IMG/VR virus record: IMGVR_UViG_3300021407_000008
Strand: one strand, 5' to 3'
Length of the DNA stretch: 29,843 nucleotides
DNA from: a virus
Lineage: Duplodnaviria > Heunggongvirae > Uroviricota > Caudoviricetes
The translations under genes and the position numbers were made by a program. Below the pieces are notes generated by a model. It ran no database searches. It was not told where the DNA came from and worked only from the letters and a program-made list of their open reading frames with translations. Each line of letters opens with the position of its first letter. Position 1 is the stretch's first letter. Below, one piece after another: positions 15,045-29,843 of this stretch.

Positions 15045-15064
15045 TTTGTTTCTCCTTAATGCCA

Positions 15065-15072
15065 ATTATACA
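15065..15072 (-). promoter_or_regulatory. TGTATAAT -10 element upstream of the EndoVII gene
   Basis: Exact TATAAT 20 nt upstream of the ATG; the same 8-mer precedes two other endonuclease genes. Confidence 0.5.
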
Positions 15073-15113
15073 TATAGTTCTTGGTTTTGTATACAACTAT
15101 AAGTTCTTTGTTT

Positions 15114-16451
15114 TCAGCCACCTCTAAGAATTGCAACGTCAGGAAAATAACTTTCCGATCTCATTTCTTGATCTTTTATGTCCAATGCGCGGAGCAGGTT
15201 TTGCTGATGCTGTGCTTCTTTAGTTGGCCAGCGAGGATCTTCAAACCACGCCAAGGCCGCACTGAGCACTCCGCTCCTAAGCACATAAGCCAAATTATCC
15301 GGCCACGGGTACCAAGTATTTTGCAGCGAAGTTTTTATGGGCGCTTTTTGTTGGTAGAAGATGAATGCTTGCCAGATTTGACTAGACGGTACAGGCCAGA
15401 AGCGGAATGTAAGCGTGGTCCCAAATGCCTGCCCGATAGGACTGCCGATGGTTTCCAGTATCCCGTTAGCGATTATGATTGGCGTATTGGCTGCAACGTA
15501 TAGGATTTGCGGATTGCTGGAAAACGTTATAGACGTTGTGACTAAGTTCTGTGCCGCGTTTACGCTCAGTTTCCACGTTGTTGCCGTAGCGGAATCATTC
15601 AACAAATAAAAAGCAGTTCCTACGATGTTGGTCTGCGTAATTATGATCTGACCTGCCGGATTAACCCCCAAAAGCCAATTATTGCCATTTGGGTCAGTCA
15701 AGACTACGGCGGTAGTTGCAGGCACGTTTTCGAGCAACATGCAAACCTTAAACGGCGGTTGGATGATGCTTTCGATATAGAGCGAAGAAACCACTTCTAT
15801 ATCGTGTACTGGCCTTACGGTACCAGTATTCATGTAATCCTGAAGCGTACAGTGGGAAACCCAGTTTAAGTCGCCTATGCCCTGTCCGCCATCGTTGGCC
15901 AATCCTGTAGTAGCAACGGTAAACGTTACTCCAAGGATTCCACCATTGGGAGCAACCACGAGTCCGGTAATCGGAACGTTGGTTACATTCATCGCAGATT
16001 GCGCTGCGCCGCGTATAGTGACCAAATTTCCTACTTGTGGCACGCTAGAGCCAGTCGTTACCGGAACGGAGCCTGGAGGGCCGTTTAGGCCAAATGTACC
16101 ATTGGGGGCGAAGTCGGAGAATGACGCCGTAACCGTGGTGCCAGATTGGGTTAATCCCGGCCCGTTGGCCGAGATGACAGAATTTAAATGAACTACACAT
16201 ACCGGTACGGGCGGAGCCGATCCAGCGTTTACGCTCATCTGGCATCCAGAAAGAACATAGTCTTGCTGATAGGGAATTGTCGTAAATGGCGCTATCGCGG
16301 CCTTGTTGAATTTCCAATCGTAAGGAGAAGAAAGCAAGAGTTGTAACGTATCGTTACAGATTGAAAGTGCGGGTTCGTTGGCAACCCCTCCAGCGCCGAT
16401 AAGCGGAGCCATTCTCACGTAAGTCTGAGTAAGCTGAACAACGTCGTTCAA
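15114..16451 (-). CDS. Head-tail adaptor / tubular protein A-like (P22 gp4 / T7 gp11 analogue) with a large beta insertion; may start at ATC 16469
   Basis: N-terminal helices then YDWKFN...TTIPYQQDY; C-terminal FRFWPVP...FYQQKAP...PWPD...GVL..AL...D pattern typical of adaptors. Confidence 0.65.
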   Translation of the reverse strand: MNDVVQLTQTYVRMAPLIGAGGVANEPALSICNDTLQLLLSSPYDWKFNKAAIAPFTTIPYQQDYVLSGCQMSVNAGSAPPVPVCVVHLNSVISANGPGLTQSGTTVTASFSDFAPNGTFGLNGPPGSVPVTTGSSVPQVGNLVTIRGAAQSAMNVTNVPITGLVVAPNGGILGVTFTVATTGLANDGGQGIGDLNWVSHCTLQDYMNTGTVRPVHDIEVVSSLYIESIIQPPFKVCMLLENVPATTAVVLTDPNGNNWLLGVNPAGQIIITQTNIVGTAFYLLNDSATATTWKLSVNAAQNLVTTSITFSSNPQILYVAANTPIIIANGILETIGSPIGQAFGTTLTFRFWPVPSSQIWQAFIFYQQKAPIKTSLQNTWYPWPDNLAYVLRSGVLSAALAWFEDPRWPTKEAQHQQNLLRALDIKDQEMRSESYFPDVAILRGG

Positions 16452-16493
16452 TAGAATAGTAGATGAGATAAGTTCGTCTCGATTCGTTAAAAT

Positions 16494-17828
16494 TTAGTTC
16501 GGATTGGCGATAACCATCCAATCAAACGCATCGGTCGCTCCCGAACAAGACACAGTGAAGCCTGTTTTACTTTTGGTACTTAAGCTAACGCCGCCAGCCG
16601 TAGTCTCGTCAAACACTAAGATTACTGGCTGAGAGGCATAAGTCACGTTTGATGGCAAGGTGATTGCTTTTGTGCTACCAACGCAAGCCGATATTCCGGC
16701 AATCGTGTTTGCGACCTTTTGCAAAAGCGCTCCATCTACCTGTAGTTCATATGCCTCATATGATCCACCGAAGGCGAATAATCCGATGACATGAGCCGTA
16801 TATTTCGGAGTTACGCTACCAAGCACGTTAATACTTAAAAAGTTGGACGCTGATTCCACTTCATAACTATTGCCCGAGCTTGCCCCACTGCAAATAGGAT
16901 TCGTAAAGTTGGGGCTGAGAATAGCTGCCACCCAAGAGTTCGCATCGGCGTCGATGTCGGAGTTTGGGGTGCTCTGGTTATATGTGATAGCGCAACTTCC
17001 ACCGCCCGGAATATCGGTATGAATAAAACAACTGTCACAATGATTACTGTCGGTGTTGAGTTCGCTGTCCCATCCGTTTTGAACGTTCCCCGTTGTGATG
17101 AAACGAACAAACCAGTTATCGCTAACCACGGAACCAGAGTTAACCGCACCCGCACCGGCAATCTGAATGGCGTAATTACAATATTGGCCAGTGGCATTTA
17201 AACACTGAATACTAAAGTCAATGAAGTGATTTGCAATAGTATTGCAGCCCGGACCACACGAACCGTTACTAACACCAAGAATCATCGCTGGCGTACTCGT
17301 TCCACCCGTGCCACCATTCGGACCGGTTAGTGTGTCCCCGATAAACCAATTGAACGAGGAGCTAATCAGGCTCATGGAGCAGTTATCTGGCTGGAAAAAG
17401 GTTATTCCGTAGGCGACAAAATTTTGTAGGCCGGTAAAGGTAATGCAACTCGCATAATTGAGGGTTACTTGGGTGGTAGTAACATTAGGTGAAATCCCAA
17501 ACGAGCCAACGACTCCTAGGTTTGCTGGAGCACAGAGGGATACTAGGCTAACGTTAGAAAGTCCAGTAGTCGGACCCGTGCCGCTGTAGCCGCATGGAAA
17601 GTATACCGTGCCGCCAGTTGACGGTAGTGCGTTTACGGCGGCTTGGGTGGAAGCGAACTGATTGGCAAATACCGCCCCATTGATTGCGGCCACGTTGTTA
17701 AACGTTTCTACGCCGGTCCACGTACAAGATTGATCTAGTGCGCAGAATACGTGAACCGTTTGCGATTGGAGACTGGTGGCCGTTAACAATAAAATTATCG
17801 GACAACACATCCAGAGTAATTTCTTCAA
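16494..17828 (-). CDS. Tailspike/pectate-lyase-like beta-helix protein with an N-terminal signal peptide
   Basis: MKKLLWMCCPIILLLTATSLQS signal; STQAAVNALPSTGGTVYFPCG beta-helix cap; N/S/T/C-rich coils; small C-terminal beta domain (KTGFTV...FDWMVI); TTG start with AAGGAG SD. Confidence 0.7.
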   Translation of the reverse strand: MKKLLWMCCPIILLLTATSLQSQTVHVFCALDQSCTWTGVETFNNVAAINGAVFANQFASTQAAVNALPSTGGTVYFPCGYSGTGPTTGLSNVSLVSLCAPANLGVVGSFGISPNVTTTQVTLNYASCITFTGLQNFVAYGITFFQPDNCSMSLISSSFNWFIGDTLTGPNGGTGGTSTPAMILGVSNGSCGPGCNTIANHFIDFSIQCLNATGQYCNYAIQIAGAGAVNSGSVVSDNWFVRFITTGNVQNGWDSELNTDSNHCDSCFIHTDIPGGGSCAITYNQSTPNSDIDADANSWVAAILSPNFTNPICSGASSGNSYEVESASNFLSINVLGSVTPKYTAHVIGLFAFGGSYEAYELQVDGALLQKVANTIAGISACVGSTKAITLPSNVTYASQPVILVFDETTAGGVSLSTKSKTGFTVSCSGATDAFDWMVIANPN

Positions 17829-18013
17829 GCGGCTTGCTCCTTAATCTCAATTGCGCGGGCGTGCATAATGGCTTTGCCGATGGCGTGAATTTTGGTAGTG
17901 AGTTTTTCTTCCCAGAATAAGTTCATCTTGCGGCCAAACGCCTCGCGATGTAGGCGCGTTCTCCATTGGCGCAAGAGGAAGTAAGCATTCGTAGTCGGGC
18001 GAAGGTCTTTCAC
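17825..18013 (-). CDS. Small basic hypothetical protein
   Basis: 62 aa, coupled to the downstream start. Confidence 0.55.
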   Translation of the reverse strand: MKDLRPTTNAYFLLRQWRTRLHREAFGRKMNLFWEEKLTTKIHAIGKAIMHARAIEIKEQAA

Positions 18014-18025
18014 TCGAATACGATT

Positions 18026-18631
18026 TTAGGGGAGTTGGAGGATGGTGTTCTTGGACTTGGAGTGTTCTAGAACCTTGCGGCAGTGTTCAACGAAAAAAGA
18101 AGCAGAACGATTGGTTTTCATTTGGTTATCTACCGCGCAACACGGCACGCAATTCCCATCCGCGTATCCTAGGTTGTTATCAACCCTGTCAATACCATTG
18201 GATATATATGGCAGATTATCGGCGTTAATCCTTTTGTGTCTCGAATAATGCAAGTTGGATGGCGGCTCTCCGCAGTAATGGCACGGACTAGACGTAATTT
18301 CTATAAATACTTCCAAGGATAGCGAGAAATCTAAACATCTCTTCTTTGCACTGCTCTTGTACATGGTATACATATCCATAATTGCAACCATGTTTCCTTG
18401 ATGTTTGGGTCTGCCACAACCGCAACTCTTAACGCGGCCTTGTTTTAGATGGGTTGGAGTGCAAGTTTTACTTGCTCCGCAATCGCACAAACATAGCCAC
18501 GTGGTTTCATACCAAACGTCACCACTGGCACGACGAGAAGATTTGCCTTTGCACGTAACTTTCCGTGGTTCTCCTAGGCCAACAACGGTCAGTTTATCGA
18601 AACGCTTACCAATCGGCGGAATTATCGGCAT
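18026..18631 (-). CDS. HNH-type homing endonuclease (GIDR subtype)
   Basis: GKRFDKLTV...WLCLCDCG...SCGC; PCHYCG...NGIDRVDNNLGY..GNCVPCC. Confidence 0.85.
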   Translation of the reverse strand: MPIIPPIGKRFDKLTVVGLGEPRKVTCKGKSSRRASGDVWYETTWLCLCDCGASKTCTPTHLKQGRVKSCGCGRPKHQGNMVAIMDMYTMYKSSAKKRCLDFSLSLEVFIEITSSPCHYCGEPPSNLHYSRHKRINADNLPYISNGIDRVDNNLGYADGNCVPCCAVDNQMKTNRSASFFVEHCRKVLEHSKSKNTILQLP

Positions 18632-19158
18632 TAATCGACGTATACCACGGAATTACCGCGCTGGGTTGGTATGCGCAGTTTTTCTTTGTATTGCTGCCAA
18701 ATTTCTTCAGTCAAACACTCTTCGCGGCGAGGACTGAATAATGCGGGGCAGTGCTGGCAGATTCCGCGAGTTACCCCATCCGACTGCCTAGCCCACGCGA
18801 TTGCTGAGCTTTGATCCTCGCGTTGATGTGAGCAATTTTCGGCACGAAGGATTTGACCTTCCCAATAGGCTTTCTGGGCTTGCAATTTGGCTTCGTGTGC
18901 TCTGGCCTGTTGCTTTTCGTGGAACTCGCTAACCGGAGGCTTGCGAGCTACCTCAATAGCTTGGGCCAGTTTTTCCGCAAACATGACTTGGCTTTCATTC
19001 ATTCGGGCGTTGAATGCGGCTAATAGTTGGGCAAATTCGCTAACCGGAACAGAGATAGACTGCTTGGATTCGGTTAACTGTTCCGGTTCTGGTGGAAGTT
19101 CTTCGGTCCCTACGGGAGATTCAAATGGGTTAACTTTACTACGCGGCAAAAGTATCAC
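18631..19158 (-). CDS. Hypothetical phage protein (coiled coil plus CxH...CxxC)
   Basis: 175 aa; AGGAG SD; NCSH...GICQHC. Confidence 0.75.
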   Translation of the reverse strand: MILLPRSKVNPFESPVGTEELPPEPEQLTESKQSISVPVSEFAQLLAAFNARMNESQVMFAEKLAQAIEVARKPPVSEFHEKQQARAHEAKLQAQKAYWEGQILRAENCSHQREDQSSAIAWARQSDGVTRGICQHCPALFSPRREECLTEEIWQQYKEKLRIPTQRGNSVVYVD

Positions 19159-19195
19159 GCTCCTAAGTTCTAAATGCTAAAGAAGTTGTTGGATA

Positions 19196-19795
19196 TTACG
19201 CAAAGTATTCGTTTATCTTGCTAGCTATTTCATCCCAAGTTTTGCCTTCCCAAGATTTCACTAATTCGGCAGTAACCTGTTTTTGTGGAATGTGTTCTTT
19301 TTTGCAAGCGCAAAACTTAAAATTGTAAGCTATTGAACTTCCCGCTAGGCGGGCCGGGTCGGCCACTGATGGCTCCCAATCGCGGATAATAAAATTGAGA
19401 TTATCGTTTTGGCTCCAATGCAATATTCCGCAATCATGCCCATGTTCCGCAACGGCCAATCTTGCTGCGTTGGTATATGCTCCAATAGCTTGATGCGCGA
19501 TATTGATAATCTTAGCCTCTAATTCTCCCACGGAGAATCCACCCAGAGTATCGGGCAGCGTTTTCCAGTTATAGAAGCTTGTAACCCTTGATATAACAGC
19601 GCCACTATTGAGCGCGACAATACCAGCATTACGATTCCATTCTGGAACCGTAAAAAATTTAACGCGATCTAGTCGGTAATCGTTGATTTGTGATTCGATG
19701 CCAGTTTTTACGGTTTCAAAGAAAACCTTTTCGGCGGCTATATGAATTGCTGGTGGACTATTGTGATGTGGAGTTGACGATGGGGTGTATGCCAT
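19196..19795 (-). CDS. Hypothetical protein
   Basis: 199 aa, coupled to the upstream glycosyltransferase. Confidence 0.75.
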   Translation of the reverse strand: MAYTPSSTPHHNSPPAIHIAAEKVFFETVKTGIESQINDYRLDRVKFFTVPEWNRNAGIVALNSGAVISRVTSFYNWKTLPDTLGGFSVGELEAKIINIAHQAIGAYTNAARLAVAEHGHDCGILHWSQNDNLNFIIRDWEPSVADPARLAGSSIAYNFKFCACKKEHIPQKQVTAELVKSWEGKTWDEIASKINEYFA

Positions 19796-19796
19796 T

Positions 19797-20636
19797 TTAT
19801 TTTACCAATGCCATTTTTTCTTCGATTTCGGCTTGTGCAACCCCAGATTCTGCAACCGCAAGCAAACTGCCGGAATAGGAGTAAATCCCCCAGTGCTTTA
19901 GCGTAACCCACGGTGCCATCCAAACCTTACCGCCTAATGATTTCCACATACGGGTGAACCAATAATCCTCAGACAGATAATTCTTTGTTGCAGGGTCAAT
20001 CTCAGCGCGGTAGAAGTCGTAAATTTCTGGACCATAGAAACTGGGTTCGTCCGACATTGGAATGTAAGACTGCACCTTGCCAGAATCAATCATTTTTTCG
20101 TATACAGAGCGATTGATTAACATGAAGCCGGTTCCGGCGTCAGTAACTTCGTTGAGCGTGTCTAGGCTGATCTGAGCTACTTTTTCTTTCTCGGTTTTGC
20201 CGACTATGTTAATGACGAAATCCCCACAAACTTTATCGAGCCGGTCTACTGGAATGTTGTGGTCAATAGTTACAGCTTTCTTAACTCGCGACCAGTTGAT
20301 TTGTTTCTTGGGATAAGGCGCGGCAATAAATTCCTCATTCAGTGTCAACATCTTTAGGATGTCCGCCGCCTGAAACTCTATGTCGCTATCAATCAACATT
20401 TGGTGAGTAAATGTAGACGACAGGAATAGGTCTGCTTGCCGATTACGCGCCCGAGTAACCAAGCTATCGTGCATAAAGTTAATCGAAAGCGGTACTTCGT
20501 AAGCGCGACACAAGCTGGCCAAACTTAACAGGCCATTCACGTAGGGCGATAAGCATGTCAGATTATAGACTGGCGTGGTCAGGAATAAGCTTTTTCCGGC
20601 TAGTTCGTCAACTCTCACGGTATCTCTTTCCACCAA
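19797..20636 (-). CDS. GT-A fold glycosyltransferase-like protein
   Basis: TPVY, SLVTRARN, DxD motif IDSDIEF, APYPKK, AGTGFMLI, SEDYWF, LKHWG. Confidence 0.85.
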   Translation of the reverse strand: MVERDTVRVDELAGKSLFLTTPVYNLTCLSPYVNGLLSLASLCRAYEVPLSINFMHDSLVTRARNRQADLFLSSTFTHQMLIDSDIEFQAADILKMLTLNEEFIAAPYPKKQINWSRVKKAVTIDHNIPVDRLDKVCGDFVINIVGKTEKEKVAQISLDTLNEVTDAGTGFMLINRSVYEKMIDSGKVQSYIPMSDEPSFYGPEIYDFYRAEIDPATKNYLSEDYWFTRMWKSLGGKVWMAPWVTLKHWGIYSYSGSLLAVAESGVAQAEIEEKMALVK

Positions 20637-21226
20637 ATTCTGGAATGTTCAGCTACGTTAAATGTACCTAGAATTTCAGTACACGCCTGCACTACTCCCG
20701 GCGATCCCATATCGTAGTCGTGGCCACAAAGTAAACCGTTAGGTTCCAAGACCGAAAGCGCCGTTTTAATATCGCGCATCACGTTTTCATATCTGTGCGA
20801 CCCGTCGATAAAGACCATATCGTATTTGGGTGGTTGCGGCGCATTGGCGAAGTCTAGCGAGCCATGGTCGGCTTTCCATGGCAGAACCCTACCAGAAGCG
20901 ATATGTTGGCTTAAATTGGCCGCAAACGTGTCACAGATGGCGCTCCGCTCTTTCCATGAGATAACAATATCTTCTGGCCCCTTGAAGCTATCGCAGGCGA
21001 TTACAAAGCCGGTAGTATGGTCGGCCATGGCCATCGTTGTGCGACCATAGTAGCTACCTAGTTCTAAGATTTTTGTGTGGGTACACGCGGAGTGAGCTAG
21101 GAAAGCTAAGTCGTCCCAGCCGCTCAATCCCTTTACGTTTAGGGCGTTATCTAATCCGCAATCTTTAAAGCGTGGAATATTGTTTAGGCAGGCATCCAAC
21201 GCTTGTTGATCTTTATCTACAGGCAA
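20615..21226 (-). CDS. Class I SAM methyltransferase (Methyltransf_24-like)
   Basis: ILELGSYYGRTT; VFIDGSHRYENV..D; GLLCGHDY. Confidence 0.9.
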   Translation of the reverse strand: MPVDKDQQALDACLNNIPRFKDCGLDNALNVKGLSGWDDLAFLAHSACTHTKILELGSYYGRTTMAMADHTTGFVIACDSFKGPEDIVISWKERSAICDTFAANLSQHIASGRVLPWKADHGSLDFANAPQPPKYDMVFIDGSHRYENVMRDIKTALSVLEPNGLLCGHDYDMGSPGVVQACTEILGTFNVAEHSRIWWKEIP

Positions 21227-21540
21227 ACATCAACCTGAATTCTGACGGTTTTACCTTTGATTTCGTGCCAAAGTATCGGAGCTTCATAGCTTGGTTTTGA
21301 ATCATTTTCGTAAGTGTAGCATCTAATGCTGTATTTACCAACCACTAGGTTCTCTGGCTTTTTACCAGAACCGCCGAGAAAGCCGTTGAGCGTAATCCAG
21401 ACTTCACCAGCACCGTTAATTTGGGTACGCTTGACTGTAGCTTGGGAACCGTTAGGACGGGATACTTCTACGTTGTAATCGTCGGGATTATCCCCTAGAT
21501 CAAGGGGAACGAGTTCTACGTTATTCCACCAAACCTTCAA
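21217..21540 (-). CDS. Hypothetical beta-rich protein
   Basis: 107 aa ORF in operon orientation. Confidence 0.65.
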   Translation of the reverse strand: MKVWWNNVELVPLDLGDNPDDYNVEVSRPNGSQATVKRTQINGAGEVWITLNGFLGGSGKKPENLVVGKYSIRCYTYENDSKPSYEAPILWHEIKGKTVRIQVDVCL

Positions 21541-21593
21541 TCAGTTAATCCGCTTCTCTCTTAATCGGCATAAACTATTGATAACAAAGGGCT

Positions 21594-21953
21594 TCAATAT
21601 TGAACGACCACCAAGTCTACCGTCTGTTGGAGATTAAGATTGGCGTTGGTTGAATTGATTAGCGGCACCTGTACTCGCGGATGGTTGCCAGAAGCGTAAG
21701 AACCGCTAGCTGGAGCCAATAATTGTACCGCGCCAAAAGAAAGTCCAGTATTCATGTTGGCGTTGGCTAAGTTTGCGGGAAGGGTCGCCTCTACCTGGCC
21801 GTTGCCCTGGAATTGAAACGGCACAGTCAGGGTAATAGTGGTTTGGCCGCCATTTCCCGTGACATTGCCAGCGGCTATAGCATTAGGCGAGTAGACGCGA
21901 GAGTGTTCCGAGCTAGTAGTGCGGGTCCAATTGCTTTTCTGAAATGATGCCAT
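21594..21953 (-). CDS. Small Asn/Gly/Thr-rich beta protein, putative virion decoration protein
   Basis: 119 aa, few charges, beta pattern; located in the late operon. Confidence 0.55.
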   Translation of the reverse strand: MASFQKSNWTRTTSSEHSRVYSPNAIAAGNVTGNGGQTTITLTVPFQFQGNGQVEATLPANLANANMNTGLSFGAVQLLAPASGSYASGNHPRVQVPLINSTNANLNLQQTVDLVVVQY

Positions 21954-21957
21954 AATC

Positions 21958-22434
21958 CTAAACTCCTTCTGGAAAATTCAATGTTGCGAATTCCCCATGG
22001 TACTGCTTGGCTGCTGCGTCATATGCTTTGGCGGCTTCTATTTTGTTCTTAAAGTAGCCAAGGCTTTTTTGTTTGCCGTCTACCTTGATTCTAGCCGCCC
22101 AGTACGAACAACCGCGAACCACAAACCAAACCACGCCACGATATCCGCTTGTATTGTTTTTCTGTACAAGTTGCTTGCGGCGTTGATTATCGCATCTTGC
22201 CACGTACCGCAAATTGCTTTTCTGGTAATTCAACCTATTGAAATCTATGTGGTCACATTCGTAACCTTTTGGCGGTTGCCCCAGAATAAATTTGTGCATC
22301 AGTGTTCTATCTTTTGTGCTTACCACATATCCGCCATTAAGGATGCACCACTTGCTATAGGCGGTTAACTTTTCAAAGAACTCGTTGTCTACTATTGCAA
22401 ACATCTCAGAGTTTGTTAGGGAAATTAGCTTCAT
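21958..22434 (-). CDS. HNH-AP2 homing endonuclease
   Basis: MHKFIL...CDHIDFNRL...SNLR; AP2 domain NNTSGYRGV...WAARI...LGYF....EAAKAYDAAAKQYHGEFATLNF; ATG at 22434. Confidence 0.9.
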   Translation of the reverse strand: MKLISLTNSEMFAIVDNEFFEKLTAYSKWCILNGGYVVSTKDRTLMHKFILGQPPKGYECDHIDFNRLNYQKSNLRYVARCDNQRRKQLVQKNNTSGYRGVVWFVVRGCSYWAARIKVDGKQKSLGYFKNKIEAAKAYDAAAKQYHGEFATLNFPEGV

Positions 22435-22443
22435 TTGGAAGCT

Positions 22444-22451
22444 ATTATACA
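22444..22451 (-). promoter_or_regulatory. TGTATAAT -10 element upstream of HNH-AP2
   Basis: 9 nt upstream of ATG 22434, no SD. Confidence 0.5.
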
Positions 22452-22459
22452 CCCTATAC

Positions 22460-22846
22460 TCAGACCCCTTGGTTGAACACGAACAGCAATCGCGAATTGG
22501 TGTTGATGTTAGCCGTGCTTCCCATACCGTAGAACGTTACGTTAATTCCAGAGCTATTCTGGAATACGCTCGAAATAGCTACGTTCGTGGTGTTCAGGAA
22601 GTTGATGTTGGATTGCTGAATATTGGGTGCTGGCGAGTTGTAATTTGTGTTCGCAAGCAGCGTAACCGCGATTGGTAGCTGATAAGTGTTAGAAGTGAAG
22701 AACGAACCGCTGCCAGCAACAGGGGCGACAAAGGTTACAGTGGTCGCAGTATTTGCTGTTAACGCAATATTTTGGTTGCAAATTGCCTCGCACCAGAGTC
22801 CCACAGAAGACGATTGAGCAGAACTAAGATTGCCTACGTTTGACAT
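22460..22846 (-). CDS. Small Asn/Ser/Thr-rich beta protein, putative virion decoration protein
   Basis: 128 aa, 20 Asn, only one Glu and one Arg, no Asp or Lys; AAGGAG SD. Confidence 0.6.
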   Translation of the reverse strand: MSNVGNLSSAQSSSVGLWCEAICNQNIALTANTATTVTFVAPVAGSGSFFTSNTYQLPIAVTLLANTNYNSPAPNIQQSNINFLNTTNVAISSVFQNSSGINVTFYGMGSTANINTNSRLLFVFNQGV

Positions 22847-22935
22847 GGAAGATATCTCCTTGGGCTGGCGATTTGCGCGGCCCTGTTAACAGTTAAAATC
22901 GTAGAGAACTTTGTGGAAGCAATACAATGGCGGGA

Positions 22936-23853
22936 TTATTTTTGGGCAAAAACGGTATCTACTAGATATTTGAAAACGCTTTCTGTGGTTAGGTTTTCTC
23001 GCGCATGCTTCATTACTTTTTCGATAACCCGATTGTAGAAGTCAATCGCGGTATCCTTGCCTTCTGTCGGGCTGTATTCGATTAATCGGCGCACCATATC
23101 TACTTCACGCTTAGGATAGCGGTGCATAACTAAGTCTGGAGTTCCGTCTATTGCGCGATGGTACGGTATTGCCCACTGGCTCAAAATCTCCACGTGGCGC
23201 ATACAATCGTGTCCCATGCGTCTCATAGTAGGCGCGAAGTAGCTACAAGCATACCCGGCGAGATAATCCTTTTCGTTATCGTAAACCGTAGATTGGTTTA
23301 TTAGCGGATCGTATGCAGACATGAAGCGAGTTTTTTCTGGCATTGACGGCAGAATTTTGTGGGCAGGGATACCGAAGTGAATTGGCCAGAAGCCGTCTAT
23401 CTGACTGCACAATTCCCTTTTGAACATGAGCACCTTATCGTGCAACGGAAAGGTATAAGGCGAATCCTCGCCATCCACGGCTGCTATTTTGTTTCTTGGA
23501 TATACAGAAGTAATGCCGCCAAAATAGAGTTGATTTCTCTGTATTGACCCGAAAATAACAATGTCGAAAAACTTATTCTTGAGTTTGTTTACAATATCGT
23601 CTCGGTCTACCGCTAGAGTGGGATCAAGTAATTTGCAGTGCGAGAAGCCGCGACCATGAAAGCCTGATACATCGCCATAATCGGTGTATAGATAACTACA
23701 ACGCGGAAAGTCTACGAAGTCTCCTCCGAGCGTAAGCCTGCCGCCGTGGCATATTGTGTCGGCCATGAAATCTGGCAAATCGCCGTTAGTTAAAAAAAGT
23801 ATCTTCAAATGGGGTTTTTCTCCCAAAATTCTGGCGTCCCAAAACCTTGCCAA
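22936..23853 (-). CDS. Glycosyltransferase-like protein (GT-B-like)
   Basis: DIVIFGSIQR, AVDGED, FKREL, PIHFGIP, GHDCMRHVEIL...IPY resemble a GT-like family I recall from large DNA viruses (GWDCLRHYEI..GCIPY). Confidence 0.6.
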   Translation of the reverse strand: MARFWDARILGEKPHLKILFLTNGDLPDFMADTICHGGRLTLGGDFVDFPRCSYLYTDYGDVSGFHGRGFSHCKLLDPTLAVDRDDIVNKLKNKFFDIVIFGSIQRNQLYFGGITSVYPRNKIAAVDGEDSPYTFPLHDKVLMFKRELCSQIDGFWPIHFGIPAHKILPSMPEKTRFMSAYDPLINQSTVYDNEKDYLAGYACSYFAPTMRRMGHDCMRHVEILSQWAIPYHRAIDGTPDLVMHRYPKREVDMVRRLIEYSPTEGKDTAIDFYNRVIEKVMKHARENLTTESVFKYLVDTVFAQK

Positions 23854-24014
23854 CTATCATGCTCTGGTGCCTCAACATAACCATCTCGCAATTCGTGTTG
23901 TGGCTCTTTGTTGACCCACATAATGCCGACACCAAACGGACCAAGGCCACCGAGACATACCCGGTTACGCTTGGTATCTTTGAAAATTATTGGGCATGGA
24001 GGTTTATATTTCAT
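23805..24014 (-). CDS. Small hypothetical protein
   Basis: 69 aa, ATGA-coupled to the upstream MTase. Confidence 0.5.
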   Translation of the reverse strand: MKYKPPCPIIFKDTKRNRVCLGGLGPFGVGIMWVNKEPQHELRDGYVEAPEHDSWQGFGTPEFWEKNPI

Positions 24015-24583
24015 AATTTTTTAAACACCGCAATCCAGTCCTTCCACTGGTCGCCGCTGATAATTTCTTCGCCTACCTTGAATTCGTATTCGCTAATGTG
24101 GCTGTAGATCAATTCCACTGGTTGCCCCATACGCTCTGACCACTTTTGTAATGCTAGCCCAGAACCGGGATAAAATCTCCAGCAATCTACGGGGCATGGA
24201 TGATATGGGCCGGTACTGGGTGCTTGTAAATAAATCAAACCACTATTTTTGAGTACGCGCACCATTTCCATAAACAGCAACCAAAAGAATTCTACATGCT
24301 CCATGGTGGACGAAGAAACCACGATGTCTGCATATTCGTTGGGTAAATCCACCGAGTACGGGTCGCTAGTCACGATGTCTACATGCTTACCGTGTACGCA
24401 GTCTATTCCAACGTACTTCACGGTTTCGGGAATTATCTGACGGATCGAACCGTTAATGTCTTGCGAACCGAACTCTACTACGGTCGCAGTCTCGGGCGAG
24501 ATTTCACCGGCAAATTTGTCAAAGAAAAACTTCGCGTTTTCATAGGCGGTTCCGTGCATTATGGTAATGGGCACCCGTGCCAA
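24011..24583 (-). CDS. Class I SAM methyltransferase (Methyltransf_11-like)
   Basis: VVEFGSQDING, YVGID, DIVVSSSTMEHV, RVLKNSG, GPYHPCPVDCWRF. Confidence 0.9.
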   Translation of the reverse strand: MARVPITIMHGTAYENAKFFFDKFAGEISPETATVVEFGSQDINGSIRQIIPETVKYVGIDCVHGKHVDIVTSDPYSVDLPNEYADIVVSSSTMEHVEFFWLLFMEMVRVLKNSGLIYLQAPSTGPYHPCPVDCWRFYPGSGLALQKWSERMGQPVELIYSHISEYEFKVGEEIISGDQWKDWIAVFKKL

Positions 24584-25584
24584 CTAAGCTGCCTCCAAGA
24601 TGGCGGCATATTCCTCTCGACTTCTATGTTGGTAAACGGCTTACCCTTTTGCGGCCCGCGTTCTTTGGCCCATTTCGCCATGCGTGCTAGGCCGTCTTCT
24701 AGTGTAACTGTTGGCTTATAGCCGAATACGCCCTGACATCTTCTGTGGTCACTTAGCGCGTGCATAACCTCATTGCGTTTGTCTAGGTGGGTTACGGGGA
24801 GATTCGTTCCCATAGCCTGCTGTACCGCTTCCGCAAGTCTATTGACTGAGTAGGGTATATCCGCACCTACGTTAAATGTATTGTTGTACCCAAAGTCGGC
24901 AAAGTTAACCGAGTTGGCAATAATTGGCGCTACGTCATCTACGTGAGTAAATGCGCGAGTCTGCGTACCATCCCCAAAGATTGTTAGGGGTTCGTGCTTC
25001 ATGCATTGATTCATGAATATCCCAACCACGTTGCGGTATGGGTCGGACATGTTTTGTCTCTGGCCGTAGATGTTGTATGGGCGGAAGACGATGTAGTTTA
25101 GTCCAAACATGCGGTTGGCGGCGTGCAAGTCCAACTCCACTGCGTATTTTGCAATTCCATAACAATCCTCCGGCGTGGGAACGGTAGATTCAAGGAATGG
25201 AACTTGGTTTGTGCCGTAAACGGCGATAGACGAAGTAAACACAAAGCATTTTACCCCGCCATGATTGACTGCCGCGTTTATCAGGTTGATTGAGCCGATC
25301 AGGTTGTTTGTGTAATTGTAACGGCGAATAAAGTGGGACAAGCCCTCAGCCGCGTAAGCCGCGCAATGGTACACGTAGTCGATTTGGTGCGATACGAATA
25401 TCTCGCCAAGCACAGACAAATCGTTTATAGAACCGCGCAGCAATGTTGCTTTAGGGTTGACGTTATCCGCAAAGCCGCCAGACAAATCATCTAGTACCAA
25501 AACATCGTGGCCTAGTTCGATCAGGGAATCTACTATGTGGCTTCCGAGAAATCCGGCACCGCCAGTAACAAGTGAGCGAATCAT
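24559..25584 (-). CDS. NAD-dependent NDP-sugar epimerase/dehydratase (extended SDR)
   Basis: LVTGGAGFLG, DDLSGG, HCAAY, TSSIAVYG, YGIAK (YxxxK), RPYNIYGQRQ, GDGTQTRAF. Confidence 0.95.
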   Translation of the reverse strand: MIRSLVTGGAGFLGSHIVDSLIELGHDVLVLDDLSGGFADNVNPKATLLRGSINDLSVLGEIFVSHQIDYVYHCAAYAAEGLSHFIRRYNYTNNLIGSINLINAAVNHGGVKCFVFTSSIAVYGTNQVPFLESTVPTPEDCYGIAKYAVELDLHAANRMFGLNYIVFRPYNIYGQRQNMSDPYRNVVGIFMNQCMKHEPLTIFGDGTQTRAFTHVDDVAPIIANSVNFADFGYNNTFNVGADIPYSVNRLAEAVQQAMGTNLPVTHLDKRNEVMHALSDHRRCQGVFGYKPTVTLEDGLARMAKWAKERGPQKGKPFTNIEVERNMPPSWRQLSWHGCPLP

Positions 25585-26930
25585 TTTTCCACCACTATCA
25601 CGCCAAATCCGAATTCTCCGGGTAATTCAAAATGAGTTAACCCCATAACGAATTTCCTGTACTCCTCGCCAACTTCTCGACTAGGAAAATCGCCGCCGCA
25701 CGTTTCAGATGTTTGTTTTGCCTCAATGTCGTGGCACATAATAATTCCTCCATGTTTGACCCAACGATAACAGTTGTTTAGGTCGGCCAAGAAACCAGTC
25801 TTGGTGTGATCCCCATCTATTAACGCCGCATCGAATTCGTTGTCTGGGAATATCGCCTTCTTGCTATCGTTGTGCTCAAAGGTCCAGCGTGGATGTGTCC
25901 ATAGTTTGGAACAATCGTTTTGGTCTATCGAGTGGAGATGCCCGCCATTCTCCTCTAACCCCAAAAGCATTGCGCTTGTGCTAGCCCCGTCGCGAACACC
26001 TATTTCCAGCATCCGTCCACGCGAATTCTTGCGTAGCCATGGCAAATATTCTTTCATGTCGCCTTCGCGGCAACCCTTTTCGTAACGCTCAAGGATGGGA
26101 TTTCTGGCTGGTAGGTGTTCTAACGCGGCGGCTACGGTAGCAATATAATCTTGTTCTTTTATGGCCTTCAGTGCGGTTTCGCCCATATTCCGCCGCCAAC
26201 CATCGTTGTCCAAGAGGTTGTGTACGAAGCGAACGATGTTCTCGTAAGAACAGTAAACAATGGAGTGCTCCAGCCATGGGTAGTCGGACTTATCGGCGCT
26301 GAATTCGCTAAGAATACATTTCGAGTTAGCCATCCAAAAAGATAGCCGTTGAATATTGGTGAGGTTGCGCCCGTCGTGCTGAATGTTAAGGCATATCTTG
26401 GATGATGCTATGGCTTGGTCGCGAGCGCCACCATAACATGAATCAAACACGGCTACTTTTAATCCCGATTTGCGCAATTCTTCTAAGATTGCTTTGCGGC
26501 GTGGAGTTATCCATCCAGAAAAGAAAACGTCCCACACTTCTTCCGTGCGCGGTATTTTTGTCAGATTCGGGGTGTATCCGAATGGAACGTGCTGACAGTC
26601 GTAGCCTAGTCGTTTCCATTCGTTGTAGTTTTGCTTATTGTAATCCCAAACCGTTTTGCCTTTGGCGAGGCGCATTATATTTTCCCATGATGCATGTGCC
26701 GCGCCTTGCTCTAAATTGTAGATGATTACATTGTCCGGCAATGTTTGTTCTTTGGAAAGCAATTCCGCGCCGAATAAGATGTTCATTCCGTCTGGCGAAA
26801 AAGTGTTCTCGCAGATAACCACTTGGTTACCAAGCGAGGAAAGCGCCCAAGACAACGAATCAATGATTTCGTTAAATCCGTCGCTATGCAAAAAACTTGG
26901 AGGCTTAATCCTTGTAATGTGGAATTTCAT
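25581..26930 (-). CDS. Fusion of a GT-B glycosyltransferase and a C-terminal Methyltransf_24-like SAM methyltransferase
   Basis: N-terminal: YNLEQ, VWDY, VPFGY, DVFFSG..TPRR, SKICLNI, ILSE; C-terminal: MLEIGVRDGAST, LIDGDH, GGIIMCHD; ATG 26930 preferred. Confidence 0.85.
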   Translation of the reverse strand: MKFHITRIKPPSFLHSDGFNEIIDSLSWALSSLGNQVVICENTFSPDGMNILFGAELLSKEQTLPDNVIIYNLEQGAAHASWENIMRLAKGKTVWDYNKQNYNEWKRLGYDCQHVPFGYTPNLTKIPRTEEVWDVFFSGWITPRRKAILEELRKSGLKVAVFDSCYGGARDQAIASSKICLNIQHDGRNLTNIQRLSFWMANSKCILSEFSADKSDYPWLEHSIVYCSYENIVRFVHNLLDNDGWRRNMGETALKAIKEQDYIATVAAALEHLPARNPILERYEKGCREGDMKEYLPWLRKNSRGRMLEIGVRDGASTSAMLLGLEENGGHLHSIDQNDCSKLWTHPRWTFEHNDSKKAIFPDNEFDAALIDGDHTKTGFLADLNNCYRWVKHGGIIMCHDIEAKQTSETCGGDFPSREVGEEYRKFVMGLTHFELPGEFGFGVIVVEK

Positions 26931-26937
26931 GGAAGGA

Positions 26938-27570
26938 TTATATCCTGAAACCAGCAACGTTTAAATGCCAATGTTTGGCTCTGGTATCAGAAAAATGAAC
27001 ATCCCCAAAAACCTGTAAGACTTGTTGCCAAGTTATTGCGCTGAATTTTAACAATCTAACCAAGCAAGTTCGCCAGCCATAGTCAACTCGCACCGGCAGA
27101 TCGGCGGCGTCTGTGTGGATGATGCTAAATTCACTAATCCATCCTTTTTTAAAACTGGCGTTGGTATATTCCCTCTTCCCATTGCGGACCAAATAGAACG
27201 CTGCGCAACCATTGACCGCCTTGCTATCCTCAACAATTAAATCTGGATTTAGCTTTTGGACGCGCCGCACAAACTCAGAAGAATGCAGCAATTTTCCCAT
27301 CTGGCGTTCTTTGTTTTTGAAGTCAGATTGATCTTCGTAGCGCTGATCGTTGATTTGTTTGTCGGTCTGCTCCCACATTTGCAAAAGATGCTCACGGTCG
27401 CCAGCGGGTAGTAGATTCTCACGGTGCAGCGGCTCCACATACGGAGCCTTCATCCAAGTGTAGCAATCAGGCTGGAACCTTTCTTCTGGCTTAGGTAGGG
27501 GGGTGTATGTATCCGCTAGTTTAATTCCAGAACTACGTTTAACGTACTTATTCGCCAATATGGGATTCAT
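26938..27570 (-). CDS. Hypothetical phage protein
   Basis: 210 aa; C-terminal GWRTCLVRL...ITW..V...FG. Confidence 0.75.
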   Translation of the reverse strand: MNPILANKYVKRSSGIKLADTYTPLPKPEERFQPDCYTWMKAPYVEPLHRENLLPAGDREHLLQMWEQTDKQINDQRYEDQSDFKNKERQMGKLLHSSEFVRRVQKLNPDLIVEDSKAVNGCAAFYLVRNGKREYTNASFKKGWISEFSIIHTDAADLPVRVDYGWRTCLVRLLKFSAITWQQVLQVFGDVHFSDTRAKHWHLNVAGFRI

Positions 27571-28252
27571 CCAATACTTTAGGTTTAAAACCGTCGCGGG
27601 TTAACTGGATTTCTACGATGCCACCGGGGCCAACGGGAATGGAGTGGTAGCTTTGGTCGATCTTCTCGCCAAGGTATTCAAAAATGACTTGGATAAAGCT
27701 TCCATGGGTAACCATAACCCACGGCAAACCAGACATGGAACGCGATAGATATTTGTTAAACGATTCTTCGCATTCCGCGCTAAACTCCGCGTAAGACTCG
27801 CCGCCTACCGGAAGTTTTTCTGGATGATTTTTAAGGTCTAAAATCTGTTCGTCTACTTCATCTATTGGTTCGCCTTCTATTTCGGCTCCAAGGTGCCAAG
27901 ATCGTAGGTACGGGTCCATCTGTAATTCTTTGTCTTTTTCTAACGCAATCGGTAGGGCCGTTTCCTTGGTCCGCGACATATCATCCGTAACTACTCCGCC
28001 AATTTCAATGTCACTGAAAAACTTGGCTACCTTTTTAGCGTCCTCTTTGCCTTGCTCGTCTAGCGATTGGTTGGATAATCCGCGTACCAACTTTTGCTTG
28101 TCTTGTTTAATCTCGCAGTGGCGCACAATATACATAACCGTCCGACCAAGTTTGGACAGAACCGAACTAGGCGAATAGGAATTCAGTACATCACTAGACG
28201 TAGACGGCGAATCCCATTCTGGCATTAGTAAACTGGCAGGGGAATAACTCAC
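27548..28252 (-). CDS. Histidine phosphatase (phosphoglycerate mutase superfamily); start could be ATG 28135
   Basis: YIVRHCE (RHG-like), L...G..DA, SRTKETA, VTHGSFI. Confidence 0.85.
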   Translation of the reverse strand: MSYSPASLLMPEWDSPSTSSDVLNSYSPSSVLSKLGRTVMYIVRHCEIKQDKQKLVRGLSNQSLDEQGKEDAKKVAKFFSDIEIGGVVTDDMSRTKETALPIALEKDKELQMDPYLRSWHLGAEIEGEPIDEVDEQILDLKNHPEKLPVGGESYAEFSAECEESFNKYLSRSMSGLPWVMVTHGSFIQVIFEYLGEKIDQSYHSIPVGPGGIVEIQLTRDGFKPKVLDESHIGE

Positions 28253-28270
28253 TGAAATAGATTACCAAAC

Positions 28271-28372
28271 TTAGTAGAAATCGGAACAACTAAGGAAAAA
28301 GTGGCAGACTGGGCAAATCATTTTACAGCGCGATTGCTCAAGTGCGGAACCGCATTGCGGACAATTATTTAT
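28271..28372 (-). CDS. 33 aa six-Cys zinc-finger micro-protein with a non-canonical ATA start (or pseudogene)
   Basis: (I/M)[32 protein letters not shown]; GGGAG SD; ATAA overlaps the upstream TAA. Confidence 0.55.
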
Positions 28373-28776
28373 GCCGATTCTCCCGATTGCGCCAATGAAT
28401 CCAATACGCTATTCGCTTCTTGTAATTCTTTGGCAGCCTCAGCTTTAAATTTCTGAGCTTTCTGTTCGGCCAGTTCTGCCATGGTATTAAGGATTGTTTC
28501 CATGTGCCGATTAAGCGCCCCAACAAGAAATTCTTGCGCATGCACGCCGCCAACCGAGGTCATCGAGCTACACGAAGAACTGCCGTAATAACCGGTATAA
28601 CAAGACAGGCCAACCTTAACCGCGAATACCGAGAAATCGGAACCAAGACTAAATTTTAGATCATGCTTATCGCAGCGCGAATCCTTGATTGCTTCGCGAT
28701 AATTAGGAACAATGCCGCGCAGGCGCTTGGCGGTATCGAGCAAAGCCTTAATCTCTTCAAACTTTTCCATTTTCAT
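28369..28776 (-). CDS. Hypothetical protein
   Basis: 135 aa; GAGGAG SD; C-terminal coiled coil. Confidence 0.75.
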
Positions 28777-28830
28777 GTTTAATTTTCCACTCCTCTAGAT
28801 ATTGGATGGAACTCTCTAGCGTTTGGATGT

Positions 28831-29406
28831 TTAGCCTCGTAATATTTTTGTTTCTTCGGTAACTATGCCGGTTAAGTCTATGTAATTTCCCTTGGTGTCT
28901 AATTTAAATTTGCGGCGCGGTAGTGGTTTTGTTTCCTTGATAAATCCAACCCTATATTGCGGTCCTTTGTCGTTTAACTTTCTTGATTCTTGGTACATCT
29001 GCTCACGAAGTTCTGGGTTTCTGGTTCTTACCGGCAGCGCCAGATATTTAAGCGCAAGATCAACCAACTCCTGTTTGCCTTCAATGAACGGCTTAATGCC
29101 AAGAAGAAAGCCGCGCTGTTTTTCCTTGCCGGTAATAAACCACTTACCAGAGCGTTTCCAAGCTTCGCCCTTGGTTTCAAAAATCTTGCGGCTATCCCCA
29201 GAAGTGTTTCCCTCTGGAACGTTTTTGGCGAAGAATTCCAAAATTCTTGGATGTGTGTTTGTTACGTTGAGATTGAGGGCATATTGAGTGTAGGCCCGCT
29301 TGTCGCCATCGTGGAAAGCATCACAACGGGCAATACCAATATGCCCTTCGCCGTCCATGTAAGCGCCCAATCTTGCCCATGTAATTTCGCTAATATTTTC
29401 AAACAT
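28831..29406 (-). CDS. Free-standing single-motif LAGLIDADG homing endonuclease
   Basis: ARLGAYMDGEGHIGI helix; YALNLNVTNT...ILEFF; W.I.G; FL..IKPFI..K. Confidence 0.85.
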   Translation of the reverse strand: MFENISEITWARLGAYMDGEGHIGIARCDAFHDGDKRAYTQYALNLNVTNTHPRILEFFAKNVPEGNTSGDSRKIFETKGEAWKRSGKWFITGKEKQRGFLLGIKPFIEGKQELVDLALKYLALPVRTRNPELREQMYQESRKLNDKGPQYRVGFIKETKPLPRRKFKLDTKGNYIDLTGIVTEETKILRG

Positions 29407-29432
29407 GTCCCAATTCTACAGTATCTCTCCCA

Positions 29433-29440
29433 ATTATACA
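29433..29440 (-). promoter_or_regulatory. TGTATAAT -10 element upstream of LAGLIDADG
   Basis: Exact TATAAT just downstream of the terminator. Confidence 0.5.
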
Positions 29441-29445
29441 AGCGC

Positions 29446-29476
29446 AAAAGAAAACACCCCAGATTTCTCTGGGGTG
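29446..29476 (-). terminator. Rho-independent terminator after the intron-containing gene
   Basis: 9-bp perfect stem CACCCCAGA-GAAA-TCTGGGGTG followed by TTTTCTTTT. Confidence 0.85.
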
Positions 29477-29495
29477 GGTAAGTTGTTGAAAACAA

Positions 29496-29523
29496 TCAGG
29501 ATATACTCGCTTCCGCTTTAATA
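29496..29523 (-). CDS. Terminal exon of the probable major capsid gene
   Basis: After splicing reads (L)IKAEASIS-stop; lies immediately before the terminator. Confidence 0.65.
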
Positions 29524-29753
29524 CCTTTGTTATCAAAGACTTACAAGTCTTTGAGCTAGTTCGTTTCCGTCTAGCTCTGCGTATCGCTACGCAGTGCGGA
29601 CTGACTCTTTACCCGGCGAGGGGTAATGCCCATACAGTCTCTACGCCTTCCATGTTTCCATGGCTTGGTTCGGCATTGTCTCCAATTGGAGAGTTCCACC
29701 GACTTTGAGCATTTTTCATCTTCAGGTCGCCCTGAAGCGGGCCTATTTGATTA
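29524..29753 (-). ncRNA. Group I self-splicing intron, 230 nt, no endonuclease ORF
   Basis: P1 with U-G at the 5' splice site; P2 GCGA loop; P3 UGCUCA/UGGGCA; P4 UCGGU/GCCGA; P5; P6a GAAA loop; P7 GACUG/CAGUC; P8 UACCC/GGGUA; P9 GCGA loop; terminal G; P10 AAUA/UAUU. Confidence 0.9.
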
Positions 29754-29843
29754 AGCCTAAAACGGGGGTGCAAGGCTGCTGATTGAGGGACCCTCATGGC
29801 CGCATACTTAAAGTTATAGGCACATGAAGCCCCTACAACTCTA
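29754..29843 (-). CDS. Upstream exon (partial) of the probable major capsid protein
   Basis: Open frame RVVGASCAYNFKYAAMRVPQSAALHPRFR(L); heads the late module and ends at a strong terminator; resembles capsid C-termini I recall (G..C.YN.K), but only 30 codons are visible. Confidence 0.5.

Follow-up and report, generated by a model that had tools for sequence, protein, structure and literature searches.

What do sugar-modifying enzymes encoded among the head genes of a tailed phage act on? We addressed this question for IMG/VR virus record IMGVR_UViG_3300021407_000008, a 29,843-nucleotide stretch from an uncultured soil virus of the Caudoviricetes (the whole stretch is hereafter called the window). 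On its minus strand, a cassette of glycosyltransferase (GT), S-adenosylmethionine (SAM)-dependent methyltransferase and epimerase genes lies between the 3′ exon of the major capsid gene and an SU10-type adaptor gene. Three of these genes, encoding a GT-B/O-methyltransferase fusion, a GT-B enzyme and a GT-A enzyme in this order, appear to form a horizontally mobile accessory module, and their repeated placement among head genes points to virion proteins as a possible destination of a methylated glycan.

Gene content of the cassette

From position 29842 to 14340, all real genes of the window are co-oriented on the minus strand, and the cassette genes abut or overlap by 4-25 nt. The flanks and the genes between the histidine phosphatase and the GT-A enzyme are as follows (aa, amino acids):

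29609-29842, minus strand: 3′ exon region of the major capsid gene (upstream flank); first 30 residues identical to the capsid C-terminal region of relatives L001 and L002
27548-28252, minus strand: histidine phosphatase (branch 1); PF00300 His_Phos_1, E 1e-27
26938-27570, minus strand: 210-aa protein with no assigned function; orthologues in L001-L003, L011 and L012
25581-26957, minus strand: predicted GT-B/O-methyltransferase fusion; Methyltransf_24 (PF13578), AlphaFold2 (AF2) model and Foldseek
24559-25584, minus strand: GalE-like nucleoside diphosphate (NDP)-sugar 4-epimerase, an extended short-chain dehydrogenase/reductase (SDR); PF01370, E 1e-51
24011-24583, minus strand: small class I SAM methyltransferase; Methyltransf_11 (PF08241), E 7e-8; phrog_32762
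23805-24014, minus strand: 69-aa open reading frame coupled to its neighbours; no family match
22936-23853, minus strand: predicted 305-aa GT-B fold glycosyltransferase; AF2 model and Foldseek
22460-22846, minus strand: 128-aa protein; candidate glycan acceptor or virion decoration protein
21958-22452, minus strand: HNH-AP2 homing endonuclease; phrog_99, E 3e-36; PF13392 and AP2
21594-21953, minus strand: 119-aa protein; candidate acceptor or virion protein
21217-21540, minus strand: 107-aa protein conserved in L001, L002 and L009 (56-69% identity); no family match
20615-21226, minus strand: stand-alone class I O-methyltransferase-like enzyme; Methyltransf_24 (PF13578), E 5e-15
19797-20636, minus strand: predicted 279-aa GT-A type glycosyltransferase; phrog_1574, E 2e-35
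15114-16451, minus strand: SU10-type head-tail adaptor; PF24175 SU10_adaptor, 29.1 bits against a cut-off of 27; orthologues in all relatives

Folds and families of the enzymes

A reading made from the sequence alone (the sequence-only reading) had described three GT domains of two folds, three SAM methyltransferase domains of small-molecule type, an NDP-sugar epimerase and a histidine phosphatase, in coupled and co-oriented genes inside the head-to-adaptor block. All of this was borne out. Family profiles and AF2 models compared with Foldseek gave a GT-A domain at 19797-20636 and GT-B domains at 22936-23853 and within 25581-26957; Pfam matches placed the three methyltransferase domains with O-methyltransferases, not with DNA methyltransferases, and matches to PF01370 and PF00300 upheld the epimerase and the phosphatase.

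The fusion protein, which probably starts at the ATG at 26930, was modelled with a mean predicted local distance difference test score (pLDDT) of 93.5. A GT-B domain at approximately residues 10-285 is followed by an Mg-dependent class I O-methyltransferase at approximately residues 295-458. For the N-terminal half, Foldseek found the GT-B enzymes WaaG, ManT and EXT1/2; for the C-terminal half, it found Mg-dependent O-methyltransferases (CCoAOMT-like, MeT1). The sequence gave a Methyltransf_24 match (E 1e-15) and a weak Glyco_trans_1_2 match, and the family profile searched against the PDB found MeT1 (6G7D; E 3e-9). Homologues fell into 41 clusters, and the two halves were fused in 41/41.

The 305-aa GT-B protein had no Pfam match, and was modelled with a pLDDT of 94.7; its true start probably lies near residue 10-16. 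Its Foldseek matches were PimB′, T4 alpha-glucosyltransferase (AGT), ManT, HepE and A075L of chlorovirus PBCV-1, the last with E 3e-3 and a template-modelling score (TM) of 0.36. Both GT-B domains consist of two Rossmann-like domains with a cleft, and reached Foldseek probability 1.00 to PimB′, AGT, ManT, HepE, WaaG and MshA. An hhalign comparison of the two GT-B families found no relation (probability 0.6%), so the two domains are not recent duplicates of each other. The 305-aa family comprises 1379 representatives at E<=1e-3, mostly viral and unannotated. Some members carry a fused CmcI/rhamnosyl O-methyltransferase, Methyltransf_24 or GT2 domain, which links them and their family to glycan synthesis accompanied by O-methylation. 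The contigs of three such fused members are 2.6-4.7 kb long, and the two that were readable show only hexapeptide acyltransferase neighbours.

The window's GT-A protein itself had no Pfam match, and its predicted class comes from other members of phrog_1574: 42/51 matched Anp1/GT62 (best E 3e-7), 13 matched GT21, eight GT8 and three GT2. The two aspartates of the DxD motif, D83 and D85, are invariant in the family, which has >3329 homologues and is likewise mostly viral and unannotated. Sequence searches of the PDB, whether with the GT-A protein, the 305-aa GT-B protein or the profile of either family, returned nothing usable.

The epimerase carries the motifs TGGAGFLG, SS-x-A-VYG and YxxxK, and its best PDB match was UDP-glucose 4-epimerase 4ZRM (E 3e-55); it scored 162 bits against TIGR01179 (galE), below the equivalog cut-off of 262. 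By these matches its family is certain, and its substrate is not fixed by the sequence. The two Methyltransf_24 domains scored 58.8 and 56.7 bits with PF13578 (gathering cut-off 26.3), and contain SAM motif I (LEIGVRDG/ILELGSYYG) and a metal-binding acidic motif (IDGDH/IDGSH). The stand-alone enzyme of this type (20615-21226) had weak PDB matches to O-methyltransferases, and the Methyltransf_11 enzyme (24011-24583) is kept in L001, L002, L009 and L013. All family-invariant residues are present in the window proteins, on which the invariant columns were themselves defined.

No cassette protein contained a membrane segment, the highest 19-residue Kyte-Doolittle mean being <=1.25. The cassette encodes no flippase, polymerase, oligosaccharyltransferase or initiating polyprenyl-phosphate transferase, and no kinase or nucleotidyltransferase.

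The enzymes as an insertion in a conserved head module

The whole arrangement is kept, at 50-95% amino acid identity and without frame breaks, in three close IMG/VR relatives, which include two complete genomes of 100-103 kb with terminal repeats. The module thus lies between capsid and adaptor in 4/4 genomes of the window lineage. In two more distant relatives, L011 and L012, whose adaptors are 43% identical, the same interval holds the capsid gene, the histidine phosphatase, a homologue of the 210-aa protein, a ~200-aa and a ~100-aa protein, a homologue of the 175-aa protein encoded downstream of the window's GT-A gene, and the adaptor gene. Because GT, methyltransferase and epimerase genes are all missing from this interval in L011 and L012, the cassette enzymes appear to be an insertion, made in two blocks around the small proteins.

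The same comparison changes the place of the phosphatase, which had been counted as part of the glycan system. It and the 210-aa protein follow the capsid gene in the GT-less intervals of L011 and L012, and both are therefore best regarded as conserved head-module genes that are not specific to the cassette. The 210-aa protein had no Pfam, PHROG or Atlas match. A GpgP-like role for the phosphatase, acting on sugar phosphates of the pathway, was considered and rejected because the gene is present beside capsid in relatives without GT genes in that interval. The phosphatase has an intact RH...H core and stands directly after the major capsid gene in every relative (L011, 1159-1788; L012, 4651-5286).

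The proposal that the phage makes its own sugar donor was too strong. A 4-epimerase-like SDR is the only such enzyme present, there is no kinase or nucleotidyltransferase, and the epimerase is missing from most other cassette-bearing lineages.

A core trio in three phage lineages

Every fusion gene found on a long contig was followed by homologues first of the 305-aa GT-B and then of the 279-aa GT-A gene, as in the window. Loci L013, L016, L017, L018, L021 and L022 all have this succession of fusion, GT-B and GT-A; there the three genes stand first in the late operon, and the terminase, portal and major head genes come directly downstream. These loci form two groups whose terminase and portal proteins have no BLAST similarity to each other, and the window's adaptor and its 814-aa protein were found in neither group. 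The same trio order next to unlike terminases and portals indicates a mobile module that has lodged inside or at the block of head genes in three lineages, and the linkage to structural genes expected by the sequence-only reading was thus recovered. On this comparison of gene orders, we regard the core trio as a horizontally mobile accessory module, to which the window lineage would have added the GalE-like 4-epimerase and two more SAM methyltransferases. At the other trio loci, epimerase, Methyltransf_11 or Methyltransf_24 genes are only sometimes present; in L018, a homologue of the stand-alone Methyltransf_24 enzyme comes after the fusion gene. G003 likewise gave no match to the adaptor or the 814-aa protein; it is accordingly an unrelated phage, and this absence has no bearing on the cassette.

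We then looked for the enzymes among GenBank phages. Searches by tblastn with the fusion, GT-B and 444-aa proteins gave no match (50,697 records for the fusion and GT-B), so that, as far as these searches reach, no cultured phage in this collection appears to carry the fusion or GT-B gene. The GT-A protein matched 63 records, from cyanophages, rhizobiophages, Caulobacter phages and pelagiphages, with no mycobacteriophage among them.

Several of these homologues and loci have settings of their own. Single phrog_1574 GT-A genes lie in the replication module of T4-like phages (Cr30, phiM12, DLP6 and cyanomyoviruses), between gp46/47 and gp45 homologues; that of Caulobacter phage Cr30 (L005) is at 65871-66719. 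In T4, this neighbourhood holds the DNA alpha-glucosyltransferase gene. The T4-like members of the GT-A family might have a different acceptor. In Pelagibacter phage HTVC023P (L006), the adjacent genes gp77-gp78 encode a GT1 enzyme and a phrog_1574 GT-A enzyme, and a gene for a putative tail protein lies a few genes upstream of the pair. The GT1 enzyme was considered as a relative of the 305-aa GT-B protein and is not homologous to it. As a cultured phage, HTVC023P could be tractable for studying virion glycosylation by this GT-A family. Locus L017 (GCA_025462865.1, contig JAOAPI010000182.1) is a 65-kb contig with the cassette and phage head genes, binned in a metagenome-assembled genome of Candidatus Sulfotelmatobacter (Acidobacteria); this binning is compatible with an acidobacterial host, or with a prophage or co-binned phage.

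Candidate acceptor proteins

Two small proteins enclosed by the cassette have an unusual composition. The 128-aa protein consists of 40% asparagine, serine and threonine (Asn/Ser/Thr), and only 1.6% of its residues (two) are charged; its gene is the most conserved of the region (88-95% identity in relatives) and has a strong Shine-Dalgarno sequence, AAGGAG, upstream of the start. Searching the Atlas with the protein gave nothing informative. The 119-aa protein is 31% Asn/Ser/Thr and 6% charged. Its orthologues in L001, L002 and L009 are 74-78% identical, and that in L011, whose interval has no cassette, is 30% identical. The two proteins have no significant BLASTP similarity to each other and are therefore not paralogues, and neither has a signal peptide. 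Their positional homologues in L011 and L012 contain 14-21% Asn/Ser/Thr and 10-16% charged residues; the 128-aa protein is linked to its positional homologue by a pairwise E of 0.007 and a shared C-terminal motif. Control orthologues (the phosphatase, the 210-aa and the 175-aa proteins) showed no difference in composition between the cassette-bearing group and L011/L012. In L017 and L018, Asn/Ser/Thr-rich, charge-poor proteins are encoded directly after the GT-A gene. As a sign of glycan acceptors, the enrichment in Asn/Ser/Thr and the loss of charge in the 128-aa and 119-aa proteins are suggestive only. On composition and position, these two are the best candidate acceptors, and the capsid protein and an insertion in the adaptor would come second.

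This insertion is seen in the length of the adaptor, 445 aa in the window versus 337-338 aa in L011/L012. The extra ~100 aa (approximately residues 254-344) are Asn/Ser/Thr-rich, and charged residues make up 19% of the adaptor in L011/L012 and 9% in the window. Furthermore, beta-rich and Asn/Ser/Thr-rich proteins with signal-peptide-like N-termini are encoded near the cassette both in the window (16494-17828; 18 Cys) and in L017 (14967-16064).

A proposed methylated glycan on the virion and the alternatives

We propose that the cassette product ends up on virion proteins as a methylated glycan, and hold the chances of this to be about even. The repeated placement among head genes and the enclosed 128-aa and 119-aa proteins are what favour a virion target. 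In the proposed route, the GalE-like enzyme would turn a host uridine diphosphate (UDP)-hexose or UDP-N-acetylhexosamine into its 4-epimer; this step would be optional, since the enzyme is missing in most other cassette lineages. The three GT domains would then add sugars sequentially and directly onto a virion protein in the cytoplasm, and up to three O-methyltransferases would methylate, and thereby cap, the sugars. All of these enzymes are soluble and would be expressed with the head genes. The fusion of a GT with a methyltransferase suggests that addition and capping are coupled, as in PBCV-1. The sequences and models show the families and folds of the enzymes, their gene order, the linkage to head genes in three lineages, the absence of membrane segments and the shifted composition of the small proteins; the donor sugars, the order of reactions, the acceptor and the benefit (shielding, stability) are what we infer. 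A more specific form of the proposal, which we hold only tentatively and with chances well short of even, is that the 128-aa and 119-aa proteins and their L017/L018 analogues are dedicated carriers to which the mobile module adds an O-methylated oligosaccharide, forming a head-mounted coat that acts as a plug-in unit between unrelated phages. In a bolder variant, the same glycan would also be passed to Sec-exported fibres. If the carrier proposal were true, there would be a methylated glycan coat on a tailed phage of Gram-negative soil bacteria.

Several points weigh against a virion target. The contrast in composition amounts to a single evolutionary comparison with one parallel, an Asn/Ser/Thr-rich and charge-poor composition is common in fibre-like phage proteins that need no glycosylation, and L013, L016 and L021 have no Asn/Ser/Thr-rich neighbour. 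The records of L011 and L012 are incomplete (42% and 13%), so these genomes may have a cassette elsewhere. GT-A homologues occur in the replication module of T4-like phages, so this family is not generally tied to virions. T4 AGT is among the fold matches of the GT-B domains, and phage DNA glycosyltransferases give the same Foldseek neighbours (PMC13326640). DNA glycosylation also takes place late in infection; late expression and fold matches therefore do not separate a DNA target from a protein target. A glycan on any protein is here a prediction from genes and folds.

The enzymes could instead act at the inner face of the membrane on lipid-linked glycans of the host, namely O-antigen, capsule, exopolysaccharide (EPS) or the donor of protein glycosylation. 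The outcome might be a late change of the host surface, for example receptor masking by which progeny are not lost on debris, or a glycan that host machinery transfers in the periplasm to Sec-exported phage fibres or spikes. We consider this unlikely, even though the cellular GT neighbours WaaG, PimB′ and HepE use lipid-linked acceptors without membrane segments of their own, the same operon encodes a beta-helix protein with a signal peptide (16494-17828), and L017 encodes, three genes beyond its GT-A enzyme, a signal-peptide protein rich in Asn/Ser/Thr. The cassette has none of the lipid-linked machinery sought above and no membrane protein; the membrane proteins of GtrABC-type seroconversion (flippase, bactoprenol GT and integral GT) have no counterpart in it, with Kyte-Doolittle means of <=1.25, and the 128-aa and 119-aa proteins lack a signal peptide. 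To our knowledge, seroconversion modules are carried by temperate phages and do not lie among head genes, which also counts against a host-glycan target. The product might also be a free cytoplasmic O-methylated oligo- or polysaccharide, or a glycosylated small molecule, that alters host physiology late in infection. MeT1 is the best solved relative, by profile, of the fusion's methyltransferase domain (E 3e-9), both GT-B domains have ManT (7QSG) among their top fold matches, and the genes of the methylmannose polysaccharide pathway, likewise for soluble GTs and O-methyltransferases, also form a compact cluster (PMC9883506). This likeness is at the level of fold and family only (9-20% identity), no hydrolase or acyltransferase partner was found, and a free saccharide accounts neither for the repeated placement at head genes nor for the enclosed virion-like proteins; we therefore regard it as improbable.

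Least probable in our view, with only a slight chance, is that the GTs glycosylate a hydroxylated base of the phage DNA and the methyltransferases modify the attached sugars, by which restriction would be evaded, as with the glucosylated 5-hydroxymethylcytosine (hmC) of T-even phages and the arabinosylated 5-hydroxycytosine of RB69 and DLP3. Beyond the AGT match and the GT-A homologues that Cr30 and other T4-like phages have in their replication module, this idea gains from the fact that phage DNA-glycosylation clusters carry GT-B and sugar-nucleotide enzymes and act late (PMC13326640). Such systems need a ThyA-like hydroxylase/hydroxymethylase or a TET enzyme, together with nucleotide kinases and a dCTPase (PMC13326640). 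PF00303 (ThyA-like) and PF12851 (TET/JBP) were unmatched in relatives G001 and G002 (complete) and G003 and G004 (partial), where controls were matched, a result that covers these relatives and not the window's own genome. No dCTPase or nucleotide kinase is encoded in or beside the cassette, and the methyltransferase domains are of O-methyltransferase (CCoAOMT/MeT1) type.

Comparison with known systems

The closest arrangement to that of the window is found in the Cluster O phage Corndog, in which gp35 is an O-methyltransferase, gp36 and gp37 are GTs and gp38 is an N-acetylglucosamine (GlcNAc)-transferase, encoded between the genes for portal and protease (PMC4351075). The authors proposed that the capsid of Cluster O phages is modified with methyl groups and glycans (PMC4351075), and glycans on mycobacteriophage capsids and tail tubes have been reported, as cited in PMC12619734. 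In both Corndog and the window, co-oriented GT and O-methyltransferase genes are embedded in the head-morphogenesis operon of a tailed phage, and the window system also resembles that of mycobacteriophages in that the enzymes are not virion components. The Cluster O phages differ in being siphoviruses of Actinobacteria, with the genes at the portal-protease position; the glycan of the window phage is a prediction from its genes. The window's fusion, GT-B and GT-A proteins have no tblastn relative among mycobacteriophages, and its set is larger than that of Cluster O (three GT domains, three methyltransferase domains and an epimerase), includes the GT-methyltransferase fusion and encloses Asn/Ser/Thr-rich proteins.

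PBCV-1 provides an analogy at the level of architecture. Its A064R protein (GT-GT-methyltransferase) adds two rhamnoses and 2-O-methylates the last one, and A061L, a methyltransferase of 209 aa, adds a 3-O-methyl group (PMC9614988). Both are soluble enzymes acting on the capsid glycan (PMC9614988), and A075L and A111/114R belong to the further machinery. The shared features are soluble, cytoplasmic viral GTs, a GT and a SAM methyltransferase in one polypeptide and a separate methyltransferase of ~200 aa; in PBCV-1, the methyl groups cap the terminal sugar of the capsid glycan. In contrast to the window, PBCV-1 is a eukaryotic giant virus, its genes are early and scattered, and its GT domains differ in fold and order (GT-A and a novel GT, as against GT-B in the window).

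The nearest solved relatives of the two halves of the fusion belong to the methylmannose polysaccharide pathway (ManT, MeT1 and pMeT3; 7QSG, 6G7D; PMC9883506), which shares with the window the compact clustering of its genes for soluble GTs and O-methyltransferases. That pathway is cellular and makes a free cytoplasmic polysaccharide, the identities are 12-20%, and the window has no hydrolase partner; the likeness is thus one of sugar O-methylation chemistry, not of biological role. Phage DNA glycosylation (T4 alpha- and beta-glucosyltransferases; the RB69 and DLP3 clusters; PMC13326640) resembles the cassette in combining GT-B and sugar-nucleotide enzymes with the same fold neighbours. It differs in that no sugar O-methyltransferases are described for these systems (PMC13326640), and in its need for the ThyA-like or TET enzymes, which were not found in the complete relatives.

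The earlier suggestion that a set of this kind had not been described was too strong, given that Cluster O already has O-methyltransferase and GT genes in a structural operon (PMC4351075). What is new is an enzyme set without tblastn relatives in mycobacteriophages, the GT-B/O-methyltransferase fusion, a portable trio in three lineages, the phage and host group, and the enclosed candidate carriers. We know of no experimental proof of virion glycosylation in tailed phages other than for some mycobacteriophages. If the proposed virion target is correct, virion glycosylation would extend to podovirus-like phages of Acidobacteria, viromes could be searched for the portable three-gene unit of fusion, GT-B and GT-A, and biochemistry would have two compact candidate acceptors in the 128-aa and 119-aa proteins. 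Methylated virion glycans could affect stability in soil, adsorption, and recognition by host and predator enzymes. Because the GT-B (1379) and GT-A (>3329) families are large and unannotated, a function for them would annotate many viral genes.

Neighbouring genes and other observations

Megablast of 14000-29843 against GenBank phages found no nucleotide match, consistent with a divergent phage. After the GT-A gene, the order is 199-aa protein, 175-aa protein, HNH endonuclease, 62-aa protein, 444-aa beta-helix protein and adaptor. The remaining features of the flanks are as follows:

28831-29406, minus strand: LAGLIDADG-like gene, next after the capsid 3′ exon
28369-28776, minus strand: 135-aa protein (phrog_25872), flanked by the LAGLIDADG-like gene and the phosphatase; without counterpart in L001-L003 by tblastn
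19196-19795, minus strand: 199-aa protein with a diverged copy of the capsid C-terminal motif
16494-17828, minus strand: 444-aa beta-helix protein with a signal-peptide-like start

Just past the end of the capsid coding sequence, at 29476-29455 on the minus strand, lies a strong terminator-like hairpin (9-bp stem and T run). To be expressed, the downstream enzymes would thus need read-through or internal promoters, and no such promoter was identified. A promoter-like site at 26965-26937 was not counted as a promoter, since it shares bases with the 210-aa gene's stop codon and is 7 nt away from the ATG of the fusion gene.

The late operon is interrupted by four free-standing genes of homing-endonuclease type, all on the minus strand, at 21958-22452 (HNH-AP2), 18026-18631 (HNH), 14340-15065 (EndoVII) and 28831-29406 (LAGLIDADG-like). 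The HNH-AP2 gene is inserted between the genes for the 128-aa and 119-aa proteins; at this site L002 and L009 have no insert, and L001 has a 42% identical HNH gene.

The 199-aa protein has no counterpart at the same position in L001, L002 or L009. Its motif IRDWEPSVADPARLAGSSIAYNFKF is a diverged form of IVRNWEPSVADPARVVGASCAYNFKY in the L001 capsid, and the protein may be a capsid-fragment duplicate that arose from intron or homing-endonuclease activity, or a minor capsid paralogue.

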